This document shows, in pieces, positions 1-7,460 of a stretch of DNA of 7,460 nucleotides. The position numbers and the translations under genes were made by a program. The stretch is taken from positions 1 through 7,460 of the forward strand of contig NZ_JAHDSX010000071.1 of the NCBI RefSeq assembly GCF_020969955.1, read 5' to 3'. The notes under the pieces are model-generated. The model did not search any database. It saw only the letters and a program-made list of their open reading frames with translations, and was not told where the DNA came from. Position 1 is the stretch's first letter. Every line of letters starts with the position of its first letter. Source of the DNA: Allobaculum fili (lineage in GTDB: Bacteria; Bacillota_I; Bacilli_A; Erysipelotrichales; Erysipelotrichaceae).

Positions 1-52
1 ATCTAAAGGTGATTTGACGACTGAGAGAAGCAATTCACCTCAGCGCTCAACT

Positions 53-81
53 ATAATAACACGGGCATCGAAGCGATGCAA
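53..81 (-). promoter_or_regulatory. Candidate SigA/sigma-70-type promoter firing leftwards out of the window
   Basis: On the minus strand: TTGCAT (81..76), 17 nt, TATTAT (58..53), preceded by an A/T-rich UP-like stretch (about 82..115). The ~45 nt of transcript visible before the window edge contain two mutually exclusive pairings, CTGAG/CTCAG and AGGTGA/TCACCT. The gene it would drive lies outside the window. Confidence 0.35.
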
Positions 82-851
82 GCATTATTTGTGAATTTTT
101 AAAATATTTTCACGAGTTGATTTCAAGTGCTGTTTCCTTGCGCAAACAGCTTCCTTATTTAATCAGAGATCCCCAAACAAGGTCAAGTAAATGCATCGGA
201 TCCTCGGTGACTTTTTGCTCAAATGAGCCGTATGCTTCTTATTTTTCAAAAAGGATGTCTTTCTGAATGCCTCGAATGGTTCCATCTCTTATAAAGCCAA
301 ATCTGGTTTCCGCTATCAGCCGGAAAAAGCCGAAAAGGCTTTGTATACTGTTCGTTTATCTTCGGGCTGCTTTCTGCCTGTCGATCGAAGCAGAGCAAAC
401 GGACGCCACTGCAATATGCTTAGCGAAAGTTTACGCTCACGAAGAAATCCGATCATTCCTCTCAGGAGCGAACGAATAAAGACTGCCTTCTACTGAACGT
501 TTCTATCCTATTTATTTTATATGGGAGCCTCTGTATGGCTTAAGTGCCCGATATGGATTCATGGATGCCAGAACGTCATTTTTTTCTGGCGTCTTCTCCT
601 TCCTCGTTTGCTTTCTCATCCCACCTTTCCATTTGTTCGGCTGCATTTTTCTTTTACGTCCGTGCACAAATCAACGGGAAATCGATAAATGTTTACTAAA
701 TCATGTTTTCAATTTCAGGTAAAAGCTAAAACGAGGCTTGGAAAGGCTTACAATAGCAGCTTTTCGGATGGACGCTCCCCTCGAACGCGTCACGTCAGAC
801 AAAATCCCCCCTGTGTTCGTCTGAGACATTCGAAGAGAGGAAAGGAGAAAT

Positions 852-3122
852 ATGAAAACACTCAGACAATGGAGTCTGCCCGTGCTGATGGTCCTGCTTT
901 CCATCAGCATGCTGCTGCCAGGACAGATCCAGACAGTCGCTGCGAACGAAACCGATTCGCCGCAGACGGTTGAACAGATTACTGCCGCCGACGGGCGGGA
1001 GAAGCTGAACTTCAACCAGGGCTGGAAATTTGTCCGCGCAAATATTCCAGAAGCTGTTCAAGTCGACTACCCCCAGTCCGAACTGGAACGCTGGGAAAAT
1101 GTCGATCTGCCGCATCCCGTTCGTTTGGAAGAATACAATGCGAGCGGCGGCAAAAACTATCAGGGAGAAGCGATGTACCGCAAGCACTTCTACCTGGATG
1201 AATCCTATGCCGGAAAAAAAACTTTACTTCGAGTTTGAAGGCGCCATGGGCGTTACCGATGTATGGGTCAACGGGACCCATCTTCAGTGCCCGTTAGCCA
1301 AGCTGACCGGAAGCAAAGATGGAAACCATACCCAGTACGGAGGCTATCTTCCCTTCGTCCTCGATATTACGGATGCCGTTCACTGCGATGGCGAGAAAAA
1401 CGTCATCACAGTCCTGACCGACAACCGGGACAATGGACTGGTTCCTCCCGGAAAGCCGCAGGGCAGTCTGGACTTCTCGTACTTCGGAGGTATTTACCGC
1501 AACGTCTATCTGCATTCCGTGGAATCGGTTCATATCACCGATGCGACGTATGAAAACATCGAAGCCGGAGGCGGAATTCTGATCGATTATCCGTCGGTCA
1601 GTGAACAAGAAGCGACCGCCGTTGTCAAAACGCACGTGCGCAACGAAACCGATGCAGACAAGCAAGTCACCCTCAAGTCGACATACGTTGATCCGCAGGG
1701 CAAAGAAGCGCTCACCAAAAGCTCAACCGTAACGATTTCAGCCAGTGATGCGCAGACGATCGCGCAGAATTTCAAATTCGAAAACCCGCAGCTGTGGGAT
1801 CTTGATCACCCCAATCTGTATACGCTCGTTTCCACCGTTACCGTCGACGGCGAGGAAGTGGATCGAACAGAAACCACAACCGGTATTCGTACCGTCATCT
1901 TCAGCGCCACGGAAGGCGTAAAAATTAACGGGAAGCATCTGGGATTCCTTTCCGGTGTCAACCGTCATCAGGAATATCCGTACATCGGCTATGCGGCATC
2001 GGACAACCTGCAGCGCAAGGATGCCATCCTGTATAAGAACGCGGGCTTCCAGATCGTTCGCACCGCCCACCACGCCCAGTCGCCGGCATTCCTCGACGAA
2101 TGCGACCGGCTTGGCATTCTCGTTGTAGAAGCCATTCAGGGCTGGCAGTACTGGAATGACAACCCCGTATTCGCAGAACGCGTAAAAAACGATACGCGCC
2201 AGATGTTGCGCCGCGACCGCAATCACCCCTGCATTTTCGCGTTTGAAACATCGCTGAATGAATCCACCGGCGTTCCGGCTGGATTTACCAACTCGCTGGA
2301 AGAAATCGCAAAATCCGAAGGACCTTCCGTTCGCACAGCCGTTGAAGCCTATGATGATTCAACGAAAGGCGATATCGTCTGGGGACGCCCGGAAGAACTT
2401 AAGAACGATACATCGCAGTCCTTCATTCGTGAATACGGCGACTTCTGGCTTGAACAGTACGGCTACTTTACCGATACGTGCCGTGTCACCCGCGGCCCGG
2501 GTACTTACTACCCCGGCGGAGAAGAGCGAATGGTAGAACAGGCCAACAATCGCCTGTACAACGGCTTCCATTTCGAGGGAACAGGAGTAATCTCTTTAGC
2601 CGAGGGTAAAAAGCTGTATACCGACAGCAATAAACGCATGGCCGGTATGACCATGTGGATTGGTATCGACCATAACCGCGGATACGATCCGACGATTTCC
2701 GCCTGCGGTATCTGGGATCTGTTCCGCCTTCCGAAATATTCCTACTATGCGTTTGCTTCCCGGCGTCCTGTGGAACACGACACGGACATGGAAGCCAAAG
2801 GCATTGAAACCGGCGAAACGATCTTTATCGCCAGCACCTGGTCCAAAACCGCACGCTTGAAGCGGTATTCGAAGCCGATGTGATCTATACGCCAGACTGG
2901 ACACTCCTCGATCAGGTGATCACCAAATCAAATTCGGTTTTCAAACAGAAAGACAGCTACCAGGAAGCAAACTGGACCGCCTTTGAGAACGAGCTCAACC
3001 GCGCAAAAGACCTGCGCAAAAACAGTAAAGCCGAACAGGATGCGATCAACGCCCAGTCCGCTTCGCTGAACCAGGCGCTCCTCAAACTGAGAAAAACACC
3101 TTCCGCAAGTCTGATCCGCTAA
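852..3122 (+). pseudogene. Secreted glycoside hydrolase family 2 (beta-galactosidase/beta-glycosidase-like) gene interrupted by two frame breaks, either a pseudogene or an assembly artefact
   Basis: There are three collinear ORF pieces. Piece 1 (852..1238, frame 0 mod 3) has the signal peptide MKTLRQWSLPVLMVLLSISMLLPGQIQTVAA/NE and the GH2 N-domain motifs LNFNQGWKF and WENVDLPHP. Piece 2 (about 1213..2883, frame 1 mod 3) has KKLYFEFEGAMGVTDVWVNG, DFSYFGGIYRNVYL, the TIM-barrel acid/base motif RNHPCIFAFETSLNES and the nucleophile motif FIREYGD. Piece 3 (open from 2808, ORF track 2880..3122, frame 0 mod 3) has a FIVAR-like helical repeat (SYQEANWTAFENELNRAKDL...AEQDAINAQSASLNQALLKL). An AAGGAG RBS lies at 842..847, just upstream of ATG 852. 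The family assignment rests on remembered GH2 motifs, not a search. Confidence 0.85.
1214..1221 (+). other. A8 homopolymer that carries the first GH2 frame break
   Basis: As written, GGA AAA AAA ACT TTA CTT CGA GTT TGA stops at 1236..1238. With one A fewer it reads GGA AAA AAA CTT TAC TTC GAG TTT GAA GGC = GKKLYFEFEG, which joins seamlessly to the GH2 core in the other frame. Confidence 0.8.
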
Positions 3123-3384: not shown

Positions 3385-4725
3385 CTAAGCTGTGGCTGCA
3401 CTTAAATGCTTTACCGTCTTTCTTTTAATTCTCTGCCATTCCAGAACGGAGATTCCAGCGCAGAGAATTTCCGTAATCACAAACGAATACCAGGAAAGAT
3501 CAAGACCGAAGAGACGGGCAAGAACCCAGGTAAGCGGAACAGGAAGAACGAGCTGACGAAGCAGGGTGATCACAAGACTGATTCCTGCATACCCAAGGGC
3601 TTGAAACGCAGAGCAGAGAATCATCGATACGCCAGCGAATACAAAGCTCCAGGAAAGGACGCGCAGGCAGGGAATGCCGATCGCATACATGGACTGATCC
3701 GCATTGAACATCGAGAGAAGCTGAGACGGGATCAGCTGGAACAGCACCGTTCCAAACACCATGATGGCACAAGCCAGAAGCAGTGAAAAACGAACCGCCG
3801 GGACGATCCGATCCATTCTTCTCGCACCATAGTTGAACGCGACAATCGGGATGAGCGCGTTGCTCAGGCCCATAACCGCCATGAAAACAAATTGCTGAAG
3901 ACGGGTATAGACATTGAATACCGAAACGGCCATAGACGAAAACGGCATCAGAATCCAGTTCATGAACACAGACATAAAACTCATAACTGCCTGCATGACC
4001 ATTGCCGGAATGCCGATTTTCAAAATGCGGCCAAGCAGTACCGGATCCCAGCGGAACATTTTGAGATTTGTATGAATCTCCGGGACTTTTCGATAGGTGA
4101 TCCAGATTCCTAACCCCATGGCTACGATCTGGCCAATCACGGTTGCAACCGCCGCTCCCGCCGTACCCATATTGAAGGTGAAGATGAACAGCGGATCCAG
4201 GAAAATATTAATCAGAGCGCCTGTTCCCTGAATAGCCAGGTTATACATCGGACGGCCCACCGCCTGCATGATTCGCTCGTACGTGATCTGGAAGAAGATT
4301 GCAAAGGAACAGCCGCAGCAAATCTGTAGATATACATTTCCCTGCATAAGCACTCCCGTATCCTGCGTGAAAAGCGCAAGGAATGCCCATGATCCAAACA
4401 GACCGAACAGAAGGAAAATCAGCCAGTTGATCAGAGAAAGAAACAGACCGTTCAGAACTGCCTGACTCGCCATTTCCCGATTATGTTCTCCAAGATAGCG
4501 GGAAAGGACCGTATTGAAACCGACACCTGTACCGCAGGCAATGGCGATCATCAAACTCTGTATGGGGGAACACAGACTGACCGAAAGCAGTGCTTCCTGA
4601 GAGTAGCCGGCCACGTACATGCTGTCGATAATATTATAGAGAGCCGACATCAGCATGCTCAGTGCAATTGGCACAGACATGGACAGTACCAGACGGCGGA
4701 TCTCCATCGATTCCATTTTATGCAT
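3385..4725 (-). CDS. MATE family multidrug/toxic-compound efflux transporter
   Basis: A 446-aa polytopic membrane protein with about 12 hydrophobic segments and a MATE-like sequence pattern (MEIRRLVLSMSVPIALSMLMSALYNIIDSMYVAG..., ...GIPAMVMQAVMSF..., ...ALIPIVAFNYGARR...). I moved the start from the ORF-track TTG (4740) to ATG 4725..4723. GGAGG sits at 4738..4734, 8 nt upstream of that ATG, and would otherwise fall inside the ORF. Confidence 0.92.
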   Translation of the reverse strand: MHKMESMEIRRLVLSMSVPIALSMLMSALYNIIDSMYVAGYSQEALLSVSLCSPIQSLMIAIACGTGVGFNTVLSRYLGEHNREMASQAVLNGLFLSLINWLIFLLFGLFGSWAFLALFTQDTGVLMQGNVYLQICCGCSFAIFFQITYERIMQAVGRPMYNLAIQGTGALINIFLDPLFIFTFNMGTAGAAVATVIGQIVAMGLGIWITYRKVPEIHTNLKMFRWDPVLLGRILKIGIPAMVMQAVMSFMSVFMNWILMPFSSMAVSVFNVYTRLQQFVFMAVMGLSNALIPIVAFNYGARRMDRIVPAVRFSLLLACAIMVFGTVLFQLIPSQLLSMFNADQSMYAIGIPCLRVLSWSFVFAGVSMILCSAFQALGYAGISLVITLLRQLVLPVPLTWVLARLFGLDLSWYSFVITEILCAGISVLEWQRIKRKTVKHLSAATA

Positions 4726-4746
4726 CAAAAAAACCTCCAATGGTGT

Positions 4747-4774
4747 ACTCTATCACACGCGTCACCATTCCCAA
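4747..4774 (-). promoter_or_regulatory. Weak candidate promoter for the MATE gene
   Basis: On the minus strand: TTGGGA (4774..4769), 16 nt, TGaTAGAGT (extended -10, TAGAGT at 4752..4747). This leaves a very short leader before the RBS, so confidence is low. Confidence 0.25.
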
Positions 4775-4830
4775 AACCTCATCCCCGGCTTCTCAGACGG
4801 CTGGCCTAAGGGCTTTGGACCTCCCATTTC

Positions 4831-4880
4831 CAAAAGAAAACTCTCCGTAAGATACCGGATTTTGCCTTTATCTTTCGGCG
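4831..4880 (-). terminator. Terminator-like hairpin (copy 2 of the hairpin family) upstream of the MATE gene, with no minus-strand gene to terminate
   Basis: The minus strand reads CCGAAAGATA-AAGGCAAAATCCGG-TATCTTACGG (4878..4845), a 10-bp stem with one A/A mismatch, followed by AGAGTTTTCTTTT (4844..4832). Confidence 0.5.
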
Positions 4881-5096
4881 AGATTCCTCATTCCTGAACA
4901 GAGTCCCATTTCATTCAGCTGTTTTTAGTCGACCGCAGTTTGACGATTGCTTGAATTCGCTAAAGATACGAAAACGTGTCAGCCATAAAAGAAACTATCA
5001 CTAACTAACTAGAAGATTCCTGCGTAATCGGGTCAGGCAGCTTCTCGGATATTCATTTTATCCCTCACTATCAACTTTCTGCCTCACTTCAACCGG

Positions 5097-5222
5097 TTCT
5101 GGTTGAACATCAACTGATTCTGATTAAACATCAACTGATTCTGGTTGAACATCAACTGATTCTGGTTGAACATCAACTGATTCTGGTTGAACATCAACCA
5201 TTTCTGGTTGAACATCAACTGA
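5097..5222 (+). repeat. Six head-to-tail 21-bp direct repeats (consensus TTCTGGTTGAACATCAACTGA), an iteron/operator-like array
   Basis: The units are 5097..5117, 5118..5138, 5139..5159, 5160..5180, 5181..5201 and 5202..5222. Units 1, 3, 4 and 6 are identical. Unit 2 has GGTTGAAC changed to GATTAAAC, and unit 5 ends CCAT instead of CTGA. Every intact unit contains the palindrome GTTGA-ACA-TCAAC. Decayed copies lie just upstream (about 5067..5096: TATCAACTTTCTG, CCTCACTTCAACCGGTTCTG). Confidence 0.95.
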
Positions 5223-5276
5223 TTTTCAGGATAATCCGCCCTCTCAGTTGATGTTCAATTTTTCTGATAATATCAT
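5208..5276 (+). promoter_or_regulatory. Promoter region of the COG2865-type gene (two overlapping candidates)
   Basis: P1 is TTGAAC (5208..5213, inside repeat unit 6), 16 nt, GATAAT (5230..5235). P2 is TTGATG (5248..5253, inside the inverted repeat copy), 17 nt, TATCAT (5271..5276). RBS AGGAG at 5361..5365 lies 7 nt before ATG 5373. Confidence 0.4.
5244..5258 (-). repeat. Inverted copy of the repeat core, lying over the promoter of the downstream gene
   Basis: TCAGTTGATGTTCAA is the exact reverse complement of the 15-nt core TTGAACATCAACTGA. A further direct half-site, CATCAACT, occurs at 5274..5281. Confidence 0.9.
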
Positions 5277-5372
5277 CAACTTAGAGAAGTCTGTTCGCCA
5301 GTTCCTCACGCACTGCCTCCAGGCTGAAAAGAGGAATCTTGTACTGCTTATATCAATGAAAGGAGAGCTTGC

Positions 5373-7136
5373 ATGACCGACCAGGAAAAACTGAATTCAA
5401 TCCTTCAAAACGGAGAGCATCTTACTCTAGAATGTAAGAAAGCAGCCAATGAGATCCCGAAAGATTTATGGGAAACGTACTCATCTTTTGCCAATACGCA
5501 TGGAGGCACTATTTTATTAGGAATTGAAGAAAACCTTAAAGAATTCGACAGAGCCAAGCGATTTACCGTTCTAGGTGTTTCGAATCCAAACAAAAGGAAA
5601 AAAGAATTCTGGGACACTATGAATGGAGAAAAAGTCAGCGCAAATATTCTTCTGGATCAGGATGTCCAGATCCTGAATATTGACGACAAGTCCGTTCTGC
5701 AGATCGATATTCCTCGCGCGTCCTATCACTTTCGTCCGGTTTATATTAACGGAAATCCCTTTAAAGGAACCTTTCGGCGCAATTACGAAGGCGATTACCA
5801 CTGTTCCGAAGATGAAGTGCGATCGATGCTTCAGGACAGTTCGGATCAAGGGCTGGATGGAGCCGTGCTAGAAGGGTATACGATGGCGGATATCGACCTC
5901 AATTCACTCCATGCTTACCGAAATGAATTTGAGGTACAGAACCGAGGACATATCTTTAATACATACTCCGATGAGGATTTTATTCTGCATATTGGAGGAT
6001 TTGCCAGAAACAGACAAACCGGCCAGGAGTTTCTGACCGAAGCCGGCTTGCTTATGTTTGGAAAAGGTCTTTCCATTCGAGAACGCTTCAGCGCTCTCTT
6101 TATGGATTATCTGAATCAGGCGAAGATGATGCCTGGTCAGCGCTGGTCCGATCGCCTGACAATCGACGGCCAATGGGAAAACAATCTGTACACTTTCGTA
6201 CATCTAATCCTGCCCCGCCTGACCAGAGATCTGCCAGCACCGTTTCAGCTTGACGGGATGACCCGGGTAGATGATACCGATACCCATAAAGCGATTCGAG
6301 AAGCAGTGATCAATATGGTCATTCATGCCAATTACAGAACCAGCGGATCCCTTAGAGTCGTCCGATATGAAGACAATCTGCTTTTTTCAAATCCTGGAAA
6401 CCTGAAAATCCCAGTAAGTGAAATTTTTAAAGGAGGCCATACGTCAGCCCGAAATCCGAAAATACAGCAGATGTTTCGAATGATCGGCTTATGCGACAAT
6501 ATTGGATCGGGTATTCCAACCATACTGAAGATCTGGAAAGAAAAAGGATGGCAAGAGCCGGATCTCTATGACAATGTCACCCTGCAGCAAGTGGAATTAC
6601 GGCTATGGCTGACCGCAGGACTCTCAAGCAATACCGAAAAAGATTTGATCAACCGCTTAGGACCGAATGTCTTTCACTCGTTATCTGAGAACGAAAAAAT
6701 GATTCTATCCATCGCTCTAAATGAAAAACAGGTAACCGTTCGGCGCATGGAACCTGTTTTAAAACTCGACCCGGTGGAAATTTCTTCTCTGCTTCAGGAA
6801 TTGACCGCTCAAAAGATTTTAATCTGTCATCAGCAGCACCGTTCTTCCTTCTATACCTTCAACGAGAATCTCATATCCAATCGCGATACAGATACTACTC
6901 CACCAACAGTGCCCGATTCCGAAAGCGCCACGAACACCGACATGAATACGACGGATCATGCGATTCTGGCTCTGTTTTCTCGATACGAAACTTTGACTCT
7001 AGTCCAGATCTGTGACGAAATTGATTCGCTCAATACAGTACAAAGTGCATCTAAAGCCGCAAATCGCCTGGTTAAAATGAATCTGATTTCCAAAGGAAAG
7101 GCTGGCCGAAAAGTCGTCTTCAGAAAAAAATCCTGA
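5373..7136 (+). CDS. AlbA_2 (Schlafen-like) / HATPase_c_4 (RecG C-terminal-like) domain protein with two C-terminal winged-helix regions. This is a COG2865-type putative DNA-binding regulator, a family often mis-annotated as ATP-dependent DNA helicase RecG
   Basis: 587 aa with a strong RBS. The N-terminus GEHLTLECKKAANEIPKDLWETYSSFANTHGGTILLGIEE matches the AlbA_2 signature (E..lEfK ... AfAN..GG.l..Gv). The middle, REAVINMVIHANYRTSGSLRVVRYEDNLLFSNPGNL...SARNPKIQQMFRMIGLCDNIGSGIPTILKIWKEKGWQEPDL, matches the HATPase_c_4 pattern (RE...NA..HrDY ... i.N.PG ... RNP ... E..GsGi..i). The C-terminal ~150 aa hold two wHTH-like segments (LSENEKMILSIAL...LLQELTAQKIL and ILALFSRYETLTLVQICDEI...NRLVKMNLISKGKAGRKVVF) separated by a T/D/P-rich linker. 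Domain calls are from memory of the Pfam family patterns, not a search. Confidence 0.9.
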   Translation: MTDQEKLNSILQNGEHLTLECKKAANEIPKDLWETYSSFANTHGGTILLGIEENLKEFDRAKRFTVLGVSNPNKRKKEFWDTMNGEKVSANILLDQDVQILNIDDKSVLQIDIPRASYHFRPVYINGNPFKGTFRRNYEGDYHCSEDEVRSMLQDSSDQGLDGAVLEGYTMADIDLNSLHAYRNEFEVQNRGHIFNTYSDEDFILHIGGFARNRQTGQEFLTEAGLLMFGKGLSIRERFSALFMDYLNQAKMMPGQRWSDRLTIDGQWENNLYTFVHLILPRLTRDLPAPFQLDGMTRVDDTDTHKAIREAVINMVIHANYRTSGSLRVVRYEDNLLFSNPGNLKIPVSEIFKGGHTSARNPKIQQMFRMIGLCDNIGSGIPTILKIWKEKGWQEPDLYDNVTLQQVELRLWLTAGLSSNTEKDLINRLGPNVFHSLSENEKMILSIALNEKQVTVRRMEPVLKLDPVEISSLLQELTAQKILICHQQHRSSFYTFNENLISNRDTDTTPPTVPDSESATNTDMNTTDHAILALFSRYETLTLVQICDEIDSLNTVQSASKAANRLVKMNLISKGKAGRKVVFRKKS

Positions 7137-7158
7137 AAACGCTCTTCCCAATAAAACG

Positions 7159-7203
7159 AAAAAACCCCCGAAAGATATTGGATCTCTCCTTTATCCTTCG
7201 GGG
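7159..7203. terminator. Bidirectional terminator (copy 3 of the hairpin family) shared by the rRNA operon (-) and the COG2865-type gene (+)
   Basis: The minus strand reads CCCCGAAGGATA-AAGGAGAGATCCAA-TATCTTTCGGGG (7203..7166) followed by GTTTTTTCGTTTT. It starts 10 nt after the 5S 3' end. On the + strand the A/C mismatch (7173/7196) weakens the stem, but ATTTCATTTT follows. The + gene stops at 7136. Confidence 0.8.
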
Positions 7204-7213
7204 ATTTCATTTT

Positions 7214-7321
7214 GTCTGGCAGCTTCCTATCTTTGCCTTGCGGCTATTGTCGGCGTTCTGCAGCTTAACGGCCGGGTTCGATATGTTTCCGGGTGTATCC
7301 TGCAGGCTATCGCCACCATAC
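7214..7321 (-). rRNA. rrf: 5S ribosomal RNA (short, about 108 nt)
   Basis: The minus strand reads GTATGGTGGCGATAGCCTGCAGGATACACCCGGAAACATATCGAACCCGGCCGTTAAGCTGCAGAACGCCGACAATAGCCGCAAGGCAAAGATAGGAAGCTGCCAGAC. It carries the conserved 5S blocks GGTGGCGATAGC, ACACCCG, CGAAC.CGG..GTTAAGC and GCCGA. The terminal helix TGGTGGC/GCTGCCA pairs with two G-U pairs. Ends are accurate to about 3 nt. Confidence 0.93.
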
Positions 7322-7434
7322 ATTAGATTTTTCGAATGGATCTTCCAAAAACAAACATCAGTCTTCCAACATAACGATCTAACGCGATCGTTGGTTTCGT
7401 AGTGGCTTCTTGCGTATAGCTTTCTCGAATCTTA

Positions 7435-7460
7435 GATTAAGCTTTCGACCGATTAGTACT
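7435..7460 (-). rRNA. rrl: 3'-terminal ~26 nt of a 23S rRNA gene (partial, continues beyond the window)
   Basis: The minus strand reads AGTACTAATCGGTCGAAAGCTTAATC. This resembles the conserved 23S 3' end as I remember it for Bacillus (…GATACTAATCGATCGAGGACTTAACC). It lies 113 nt upstream of the 5S gene in the expected 23S-5S order. The spacer (7322..7434) contains the hairpin AACGATC-TAACGC-GATCGTT (7373..7392). Confidence 0.7.

Follow-up and report, generated by a model that had tools for sequence, protein, structure and literature searches.

A helically phased repeat array beside a Schlafen-HisKinase-HTH gene of Allobaculum fili: probable binding sites for the protein's own C-terminal winged helix

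The window, a stretch of 7,460 nucleotides from Allobaculum fili (contig NZ_JAHDSX010000071.1), carries the gene for a 587-residue prokaryotic protein of the Schlafen-HisKinase-HTH class (HTH, helix-turn-helix), and the intergenic region between this gene and a divergent MATE transporter gene holds an array of palindromic 21-bp repeats. The array, an inverted copy of its core and a final half-site lie 90-306 nt upstream of the Schlafen gene. Comparison with homologous loci, cited here by L numbers, suggests that the array is probably a set of cognate binding sites for the protein's own C-terminal winged helix, with autorepression or tethering as its probable role at this locus. The original prediction, made from the window alone, had proposed a cooperative, phased platform for the product of the adjacent gene, and this proposal holds through the comparative tests, binding itself being something that we infer. 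The features of the array and of the gene are as follows.

4741..5372 (630 bp), intergenic region with the array, between the divergent MATE and Schlafen genes
5067..5096, decayed upstream edge of the array, 65% identity in register
5097..5222, six 21-bp units, each a 13-bp palindrome GTTGAACATCAAC (5-3-5) plus an 8-bp spacer
5208..5235, + strand, candidate promoter P1 (TTGAAC-16-GATAAT), -35 within the last unit, from a consensus scan only
5241..5253 and 5274..5286, 13-nt inverted repeat CTCTCAGTTGATG ... CATCAACTTAGAG, 92% complementary, 20 nt between the arms
5244..5258, inverted copy of the 15-nt core, TCAGTTGATGTTCAA, 21 nt past the last unit
5248..5276, + strand, candidate promoter P2 (TTGATG-17-TATCAT), -35 within the inverted copy, from a consensus scan only
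5373..7136, + strand, gene for the 587-residue Schlafen-HisKinase-HTH protein (COG2865 type)
5415..5786, + strand, SLFN_AlbA_2 nuclease domain, residues 15-138 (PF04326, E = 2.1e-11)
6354..6578, + strand, HATPase_c_4 (GHKL/histidine-kinase-like ATPase), residues 328-402 (PF13749, E = 6e-12)
6687..6860, + strand, first winged helix, residues 439-496 (H-H-H-E-E in the AlphaFold2 model; weak Penicillinase_R match)
6861..6947, + strand, disordered linker, residues 497-525 (predicted local distance difference test score, pLDDT, below 50 for residues 503-521)
6948..7127, + strand, second, C-terminal winged helix, MarR-like, residues 526-585 (AlphaFold2 model and Pfam)

Tandem Repeats Finder (TRF) places the 21-bp array at 5089..5224 (6.5 copies, 89% matches, score 223) with the unit TCAACTGATTCTGGTTGAACA, a period that equals two helical turns. 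Four of the six units are identical, two substitutions fall in 5118..5138 and three in 5181..5201, as the original prediction had read them. The stretch at 5067..5096 had been taken for further, decayed units, which its identity in register supports in part, the half-sites that it retains being of the TCAAC type only (5072..5076 and 5090..5094). The inverted 15-mer proved to be 100% complementary to four of the units, and the half-site noted downstream of it, ATCAACT, was located at about 5275..5281; with the inverted copy it makes up the 13-nt inverted repeat, which brackets the candidate -35 and -10 of P2. With up to two mismatches allowed, GTTGAACATCAAC has 8 matches against 0.23 expected, a number reached in 0 of 200 shuffles. 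An exact scan for two adjacent palindromes (GTTGAACATCAAC-N8-GTTGAACATCAAC) gave no match in genome, metagenome and viral contig collections that exclude the source genome, and blastn of 5040..5300 against plasmids gave none either, nor did the array match phage contigs or viral sequences; because these exact scans and the plasmid search returned nothing, the exact double-palindrome array is specific to the window's lineage. Two other readings of the repeats were set aside. Two minus-strand frames are open through the array (44- and 25-residue open reading frames (ORFs), with, for example, 'VQPESVD' three times), and these were treated as repeat artefacts, being bounded by the edges of an array that is itself palindromic. 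A CRISPR-like array was rejected on the head-to-tail units and the near-constant 8-bp spacer, where unique spacers would be expected.

The consensus scan returned the same two promoters, P1 and P2, that the original prediction had named, and these candidates, the only promoter-like sites on the + strand, run across the last unit, the inverted copy and the half-site. P2 also has an extended -10, TGaTAATAT, at 5266..5274 by sequence reading. The scan is weak evidence, with 3 sites found against 1.0 ± 1.0 in shuffles.

The encoded protein shows the domains of the Schlafen-HisKinase-HTH class, namely an AlbA_2 domain with its motif, a HATPase_c_4 domain and a C-terminal HTH. The sequence EHLTLECK (residues 15-22) fits Ex4(E/D)xK, the catalytic motif of Schlafen RNases (PMC13056530), and E15, E20 and K22 are invariant in 41 homologues. 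Among 5,930 prokaryotic Schlafens, HisKinase fusions account for 34% and HisKinase-HTH fusions for 19%, and the Schlafen-HisKinase(-HTH) arrangement is reported to be the commonest among bacterial Schlafens (PMC13056530). Recent work has shown that Schlafen nucleases of bacteria act as tRNases against phages; HisKinase fusions were among those assayed, gave no phenotype and fell outside the two systems that conferred defence (PMC13056530). In our protein PADLOC gave only weak partial matches, to Schlafen-bearing pAgo models.

The AlphaFold2 model (mean pLDDT 77) contains the two C-terminal winged helices that had been predicted. The second has a recognition helix ...TVQSASKAANRLV... and a basic wing KGKAGRKVVFRKK, and a search with the isolated C-terminus detected MarR_2 at residues 523-574 (E = 9e-6, 26.2 bits against a cutoff of 27). 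Foldseek placed the uncharacterised structures 3LMM and 2KYY first, followed by tandem-winged-helix and MarR proteins, and the HATPase_c_4 region matched 3LMM and pyruvate dehydrogenase kinases; the weak matches include SelB, with its RNA-binding tandem winged helices, and AspA, a centromere-binding winged helix. With two winged helices, the last of them bearing a basic wing, the modelled protein looks built to bind DNA.

We found no protein more than 50% identical to the window protein among GTDB species representatives; a larger protein collection contains one at 99% identity and a few at 52-60%. The 99% identical protein comes from a second sample (L082), in which the order MATE-array-gene is as in the window and the array has 5.5 copies. 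Over 4.4 kb, 24 substitutions separate the two loci, and the one indel between them amounts to a single 21-bp unit. Over 11 units from the window and L082, changes affect 4 of 143 nt in the palindromes as against 13 of 88 in the spacers (Fisher p = 0.0012; p = 0.034 without the edge units), about 5-fold fewer in the palindromes. The more distant L084 (53% identity, different neighbours) has CAGTTGATATT in 3.6 copies at -274..-235 and a GTTGAACTTCAAC palindrome at about -73, and in L166/L167 (52% identity) a 20-bp unit bearing AGTGTATATTCACT palindromes is repeated about 4.5 times at -293..-205. Because L082, L084 and L166/L167 all have upstream arrays at a similar distance, an array in this position is a trait of the window's clade. 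When the upstream regions of the window, L084 and L083 were aligned, the mean identity was only 53%, and apart from the half-sites nothing convincingly homologous emerged. The array was also considered as the 3'-end relic of a lost upstream gene copy, an explanation that we rejected on the near-equal distance (-293 to -149) in three nearest-clade lineages.

We then surveyed 155 loci with a complete ORF end (80 genomic, 80 metagenomic and a few individual loci, minus those in which the ORF leaves the contig), counting TRF arrays with a period of at least 9. The original prediction had proposed looking for arrays at other COG2865 genes, and 137 of the 155 loci have a tandem array of their own at the gene, at about 13-14 times the density in the flanks. 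The densities by region were as follows.

Last 600 nt of the ORF: 1.24 per kb
200 nt after the stop: 1.16 per kb
400 nt upstream: 0.37 per kb
First ~1100 nt of the ORF: 0
Flanks (989 kb in total): 0.088 per kb

Most arrays either lie in frame within the linker that leads to the last winged helix or follow closely on the stop, and in the window's nearest clade they lie upstream. The window's own linker, residues 497-525, is free of repeats, although the same segment holds the in-frame array in most relatives, and by sequence reading no motif cluster follows the stop of the window's gene. Several of the 18 loci without a TRF array have irregular motif clusters directly after the stop, inverted copies included, and the more distant members (L002-L008, L086-L098, L135, L168, L169) likewise have their cluster after the stop. 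In every locus checked the motif is essentially restricted to the gene-adjacent cluster, with isolated singles elsewhere. One short-read (Logan) contig with an identical gene starts inside the array (L001 1-56), and since assemblies tend to break at these repeats, array counts from metagenomes will be too low.

The peptides encoded by the in-frame arrays are linkers of low complexity, among them KSQGV, SVHKEEG and DSSQSL. The Bacteroidales core AGTCAAGGAGTAAA recurs at 13, 14, 15 or 16-nt spacing and is read in two frames, as KSQGV or KSRS, and in Lachnospiraceae a 27-nt period arises from 13-nt units that alternate with 14-nt units. (In-ORF arrays such as those at L011 7492-7593, L013 7523-7583 and L070-L081, about +1233..+1305, are read in two frames, as KSQGV/KSRS, or in 13+14 = 27-nt units that encode KKASEKSVR.) Six loci (L143, L145, L149, L150, L152, L153) carry arrays of one motif, AAAAGTCAAGGAGTA, in two places: 7-9 noncoding copies at -157..-22, where every frame has stops, and ~10 in-frame copies at +1512..+1673. 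Because the same core is read in two frames and some loci have a noncoding upstream array, the repeats appear to act at the level of nucleic acid, not of peptide. In these six loci the two arrays (in L149, for example, 2838-2972 and 4507-4669) are direct repeats, one on either side of the part of the gene that encodes the Schlafen and ATPase domains.

Arrays in Holdemanella (L014-L017, L030, L103, L115-L134) consist of AGTGGAAACCACT palindromes at a 20-bp period, begin at the stop codon and vary from 2.8 to 5.8 copies between strains. The Holdemanella array (for example L030 7685-7780) takes up all of the space from the stop codon to the ribosome-binding site of the tsaE-like gene that comes next (tRNA t6A pathway), and these loci have a separate 17-bp near-palindrome, TATGAATATTCACATGAT, at -197..-164. 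Further upstream repeats were seen in L143-L153 (Bacteroidales), where an unrelated 22-bp repeat TGGTGCGGATGCTTAGCACCAA with palindromic ends occurs in 3-4 copies at about -250..-165, and in Tannerella-like loci, where a 40-bp repeat AATGGGCCCAAAAAGTTTTTTTCATGCGAAAGCCTCAGGA occurs in 8-10 copies upstream of the homologue (L032 23-360; L163, about -626..-209).

If the array is read by the protein beside it, the repeat should change with the winged helix, and the original prediction had named this co-variation as a check. Among 112 non-redundant loci, compared over the N-terminal 400 and the C-terminal 80 residues, 32 pairs are at least 85% identical in the former and less than 30% identical in the latter. 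The arrays of these pairs are unrelated, with a mean similarity score of 13, compared with 34 for pairs that share a C-terminus. The motif thus appears to track the last winged-helix cassette and not the conserved N-terminus. In the window's subfamily, recognition helices and repeat cores pair as follows.

...ASKA..R.. (window, L084): core CAGTTGAT / ATCAACTG
..AN(A/V)ALGR..: core TTGGTGTA, (A)GTTGGTGTA
..ANKALKR..: core AGTGGAAACCACT
..RQGA(F/A)..: core (C)TTGACGA
..ASVALNR..: core AAGTTGAA or AGTTGTA

In L031, L033, L034, L035, L038, L047, L155, L156, L160 and L070-L079 the N-terminal 400 residues are 83-99% identical and the C-terminal winged helices less than 30% identical; judged from such pairs, the C-terminal module has clearly been swapped between otherwise near-identical genes. 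Downstream remnants of the array types of other cassettes occur in L047 (7820-8060, 8289-8648) and L033 (7931-8092), and a separate 119-residue ORF downstream of the L047 gene consists of an array plus a winged helix. These remnants look like a store, or a graveyard, of exchangeable array and winged-helix cassettes.

Such exchange raises the question of whether the arrays are simply its by-product, or that of replication slippage: unstable low-complexity DNA at a swap junction or in a tolerant linker, which binds nothing. The unequal copy numbers of the window and L082 (6.5 and 5.5) and of the Holdemanella strains would fit, as would the low-complexity peptides encoded in frame, the disorder of the window's linker, the passage of C-terminal cassettes between near-identical N-termini and the array remnants and spare array and winged-helix ORF of L047. 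We nonetheless consider this explanation unlikely. Arrays persist in noncoding DNA both upstream and past the stop, many clusters are irregular and include inverted copies, which slippage does not produce, and palindromes are kept while spacers drift. Related winged helices retain related cores across species, and spacings are limited to whole helical turns, as described below.

It is also conceivable that the array is an operator for a different protein, for example a regulator of the divergent MATE gene, with which it shares the 630-bp intergenic region, and that the Schlafen gene is adjacent by chance; the assignment of the sites to any protein is, after all, drawn from comparison. Across the loci, however, the only constant partner of the arrays is the Schlafen-HisKinase-HTH gene. 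Neighbours differ (Rrf2/Macro in L084, a tsaE-like gene in L030, helicase/recombinase in L168, acetyltransferase in L169), and relatives with unrelated neighbours keep arrays with related cores. As the motif also co-varies with the C-terminal winged helix of the Schlafen gene, we regard an operator for another protein as quite unlikely.

The spacing of the sites bears on the nature of the target. In the noncoding clusters of 18 subfamily lineages, sites on the same strand are separated only by 11-12, 19-21, 32 or 40-42 bp, which correspond to about 1, 2, 3 or 4 helical turns. At 10.5 bp R is 0.8, with a mean phase of about 0 and a Rayleigh p of about 7e-9 (one value of each spacing per lineage; the p-value is optimistic because the lineages are related). 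The subfamily clusters have sites on both strands, and in L089 the array is placed after a terminator-like hairpin. Because of the helical spacing, the sites on both strands and the position of the L089 array, the evidence favours a target on double-stranded DNA, along a single face of the helix, over one on RNA.

An element acting as RNA was nevertheless considered, either a ToxIN-like repeat antitoxin, cut to size by the Schlafen RNase and inhibiting it in turn, or an mRNA site for the winged helices comparable to SelB and its selenocysteine insertion sequence (SECIS). An endoribonuclease gene preceded by tandem repeats recalls a type III toxin-antitoxin locus. A 5-bp hairpin could form in each unit, and the last unit and inverted copy, as RNA, would fold into a hairpin of -25.4 kcal/mol (z = -5.5) with U5 after it, which would place a terminator-like element between the array and the gene. 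Arrays that lie in frame or past the stop are, moreover, necessarily present in mRNA, and SelB was among the weak Foldseek matches. These points are outweighed by the match of the spacing to the helical repeat of B-DNA, by the sites on both strands and by the L089 array. In addition, the consensus scan found no promoter-like site upstream of the array; the units (21 nt here, 11-12 or 20 nt in relatives) are too short for ToxI-like pseudoknots of 34-45 nt; and the cores share no RNA structure across lineages. An Rfam scan of the window matched 5S rRNA alone, with no family in the array region, and by Pfam the protein lies outside the ToxN/AbiQ/CptN families. Action at the RNA level is therefore very unlikely in our estimation.

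The surroundings of the locus decide a further question, that of its replicon. The remaining features of the window are as follows.

To about 3122, + strand, glycoside hydrolase family 2 (GH2) gene, from ORF and Pfam calls
3385..4740, - strand, MATE transporter gene, from ORF and Pfam calls
7165..7213, hairpin plus T-run, probable terminator between the Schlafen gene and the convergent 5S rRNA gene, by sequence reading
7214..7320, - strand, 5S rRNA gene, Rfam match, convergent with the Schlafen gene

With the GH2 and MATE genes on one side and an rRNA operon on the other, the locus is chromosomal; the window edge at 7390-7460 resembles the 3' end of 23S rRNA, so that the locus adjoins the operon. 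The original prediction had allowed for replicon-origin iterons or a parC/parS-like centromere, perhaps the remains of an integrated element; both were weighed here, the second as a partition centromere of the parC/sopC kind. In form the array would suit either: the direct 21-bp repeats are of iteron-like length, they overlap a promoter as in R1 parC, and AspA appeared among the weak Foldseek matches. The flanking hexamers TTATCC and GGATAA, which had been put forward as DnaA-like cores, are present as written, but they are bare hexamers, there is no sharp AT-rich block (G+C content 0.41-0.43 around the array), and nothing else favours an origin. Neither the window nor L082 contains a gene for Rep, ParA, ParM or an integrase, a TubZ-type NTPase or a small centromere-binding protein. 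Homologues occur in just 33 of 72,556 plasmid records, 25 of these non-mobilisable, and the array itself had no plasmid, phage-contig or viral match. Most relatives, furthermore, are chromosomal and carry the array within the ORF of the protein itself. The iteron and centromere alternatives are thus poorly supported, and we regard them as extremely improbable.

Homologues are also found in 22 phage records, mostly of streptococcal satellite phages. In satellite-phage (Javan) records such as MK448645, MK448661 and others the homologue lies ~1.3 kb in from an end of the record, where accessory or defence cargo is typically found. In the window, none of the neighbours is a known defence gene by Pfam. 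The array and Schlafen gene have a G+C content of 0.41-0.48 (window 5001-7250), compared with 0.49-0.55 for the GH2 and MATE genes, which is mildly suggestive of horizontal acquisition. The GH2 gene itself differs between the two samples: its product is 1980 residues long in L082, the window gene is without 3.66 kb (window 1-3122 against L082 156-6949), and small indels near its 5' end split the frame into ORFs 852..1238, 1030..2883 and 2880..3122, so that it may be a pseudogene or a shortened variant.

Taken together, these data favour the array as a bank of sites for the adjacent protein, in which a Schlafen-type RNase is joined to a GHKL-like ATPase and a pair of winged helices. One dimer would sit on each unit, at the palindrome GTTGA-ACA-TCAAC, and the two-turn period would set all dimers on one face of the helix and permit cooperative loading. 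The only promoter-like hexamers coincide with the promoter-proximal sites (the last unit, the inverted copy and the final half-site), so that occupancy of these sites would shut off transcription, and a potentially toxic RNase would be kept scarce or be parked on DNA next to the gene that encodes it. The identity of the reader (the C-terminal winged helix), dimeric and cooperative binding, repression and any part in phage defence are all steps that we infer. The result would account for an otherwise orphan repeat array in a 630-bp intergenic region.

Several points weigh against this interpretation. Binding to the array is deduced from the co-variation with the winged helix and from the gene being the only constant neighbour, and since in-frame arrays adjoin the segment that encodes the winged helix, co-inheritance alone could yield co-variation. 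The loci are phylogenetically non-independent, which makes p-values optimistic, and any genome-wide uniqueness of the 21-mer is presumed, the collections searched being without the source genome. The Bacteroidales and Lachnospiraceae in-frame arrays, at 13-16 nt, show no helical phasing. Autorepression is the weakest link, for the promoter is a consensus match only, and the same scan near the upstream arrays of L084 and L166 found no promoter on the + strand. Most relatives have the array at the 3' end of the gene or within the ORF, positions at which it could not act simply by occluding a promoter; autorepression is therefore perhaps specific to the window's clade, or not the primary role.

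These distributions prompt a wider proposal for Schlafen-HisKinase-HTH proteins as a rule, one that we offer tentatively and consider doubtful as it stands: each would have a private docking array that forms a swappable cassette with its reader and serves as a tether in cis, holding the RNase inactive until infection. Where the array lies in the linker before the winged helix, array and reader would be a single swappable specificity cassette. Newly made RNase would be captured beside its gene and remain inactive on the DNA until infection disturbs the complex, and in the window's clade the array would have moved onto the promoter and would also set the dose. If this were so, a defence effector would be held in check by its own chromosomal sites and not by an antitoxin, and missing phenotypes may reflect cloned constructs in which the array is lacking or titrating. 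A coding linker would also preserve a DNA signal, read in two frames with 13+14-nt units, and this signal would be passed on along with the domain downstream of it. If each gene has a cognate, co-varying array, the HTH domain gains a defined DNA ligand.

The domain order AlbA_2, HATPase_c_4, HTH of the window protein matches that of the Schlafen-HisKinase-HTH class (PMC13056530; COG2865; PDB 3LMM, 2KYY), and as the description of that class mentions no DNA repeats, operator or array, the pairing of gene and array seen here is additional to it. The original prediction knew of no phased array for this protein family, and we likewise found no account of arrays or operators for Schlafen-HisKinase-HTH or COG2865 proteins in the published literature, our coverage of which is incomplete, so that an earlier description is possible.

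Other systems offer closer parallels for the array. In R1 parC/ParR and the omega heptads of pSM19035, repeats that overlap a promoter are bound cooperatively by a product of their own operon. The window shares with these the phased direct repeats over a promoter beside the gene of the presumed binder, and binding would likewise yield a nucleoprotein complex and autorepression. Here, in contrast, the locus is chromosomal and without a partition NTPase, and the binder would be a 587-residue RNase-ATPase fusion instead of a small ribbon-helix-helix or HTH adaptor; most relatives of the window, moreover, place the array at the 3' end or in the ORF. Regulators of the BrxR/CapW type (wHTH-WYL) use a winged helix to bind repeats at a defence promoter, which stays off until a trigger arrives. 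They are separate small proteins acting on one inverted repeat, whereas in the present family effector and winged helix are one protein and the sites occur as arrays, 3-10 copies in each.

Type III toxin-antitoxin systems (ToxIN, AbiQ/antiQ, CptIN) have 34-45-nt tandem repeats upstream of an endoribonuclease gene. The window resembles them in having a repeat array in that position, with a predicted hairpin and U-run between array and gene. It differs in its 21-nt units (11-12 nt in relatives), in the toxin family and in the absence of a detected upstream promoter, and the helical phasing and mixed orientation of the sites argue for duplex DNA. In RepA_N initiators of the pAD1/pSK41 type the origin repeats lie inside the initiator's own coding sequence and are thought to be bound by the encoded protein. 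Relatives of the window share with them a conserved N-terminus, variable in-frame tandem repeats and a C-terminal domain; the window itself has no RepA_N domain or plasmid context, and its array is upstream and noncoding. By analogy, these in-gene origin repeats would be the nearest counterpart of the in-frame arrays. Operator and iteron arrays are well known, and it is the in-frame arrays, read in two frames and travelling with a winged-helix cassette, that are the most unusual aspect of the present family.

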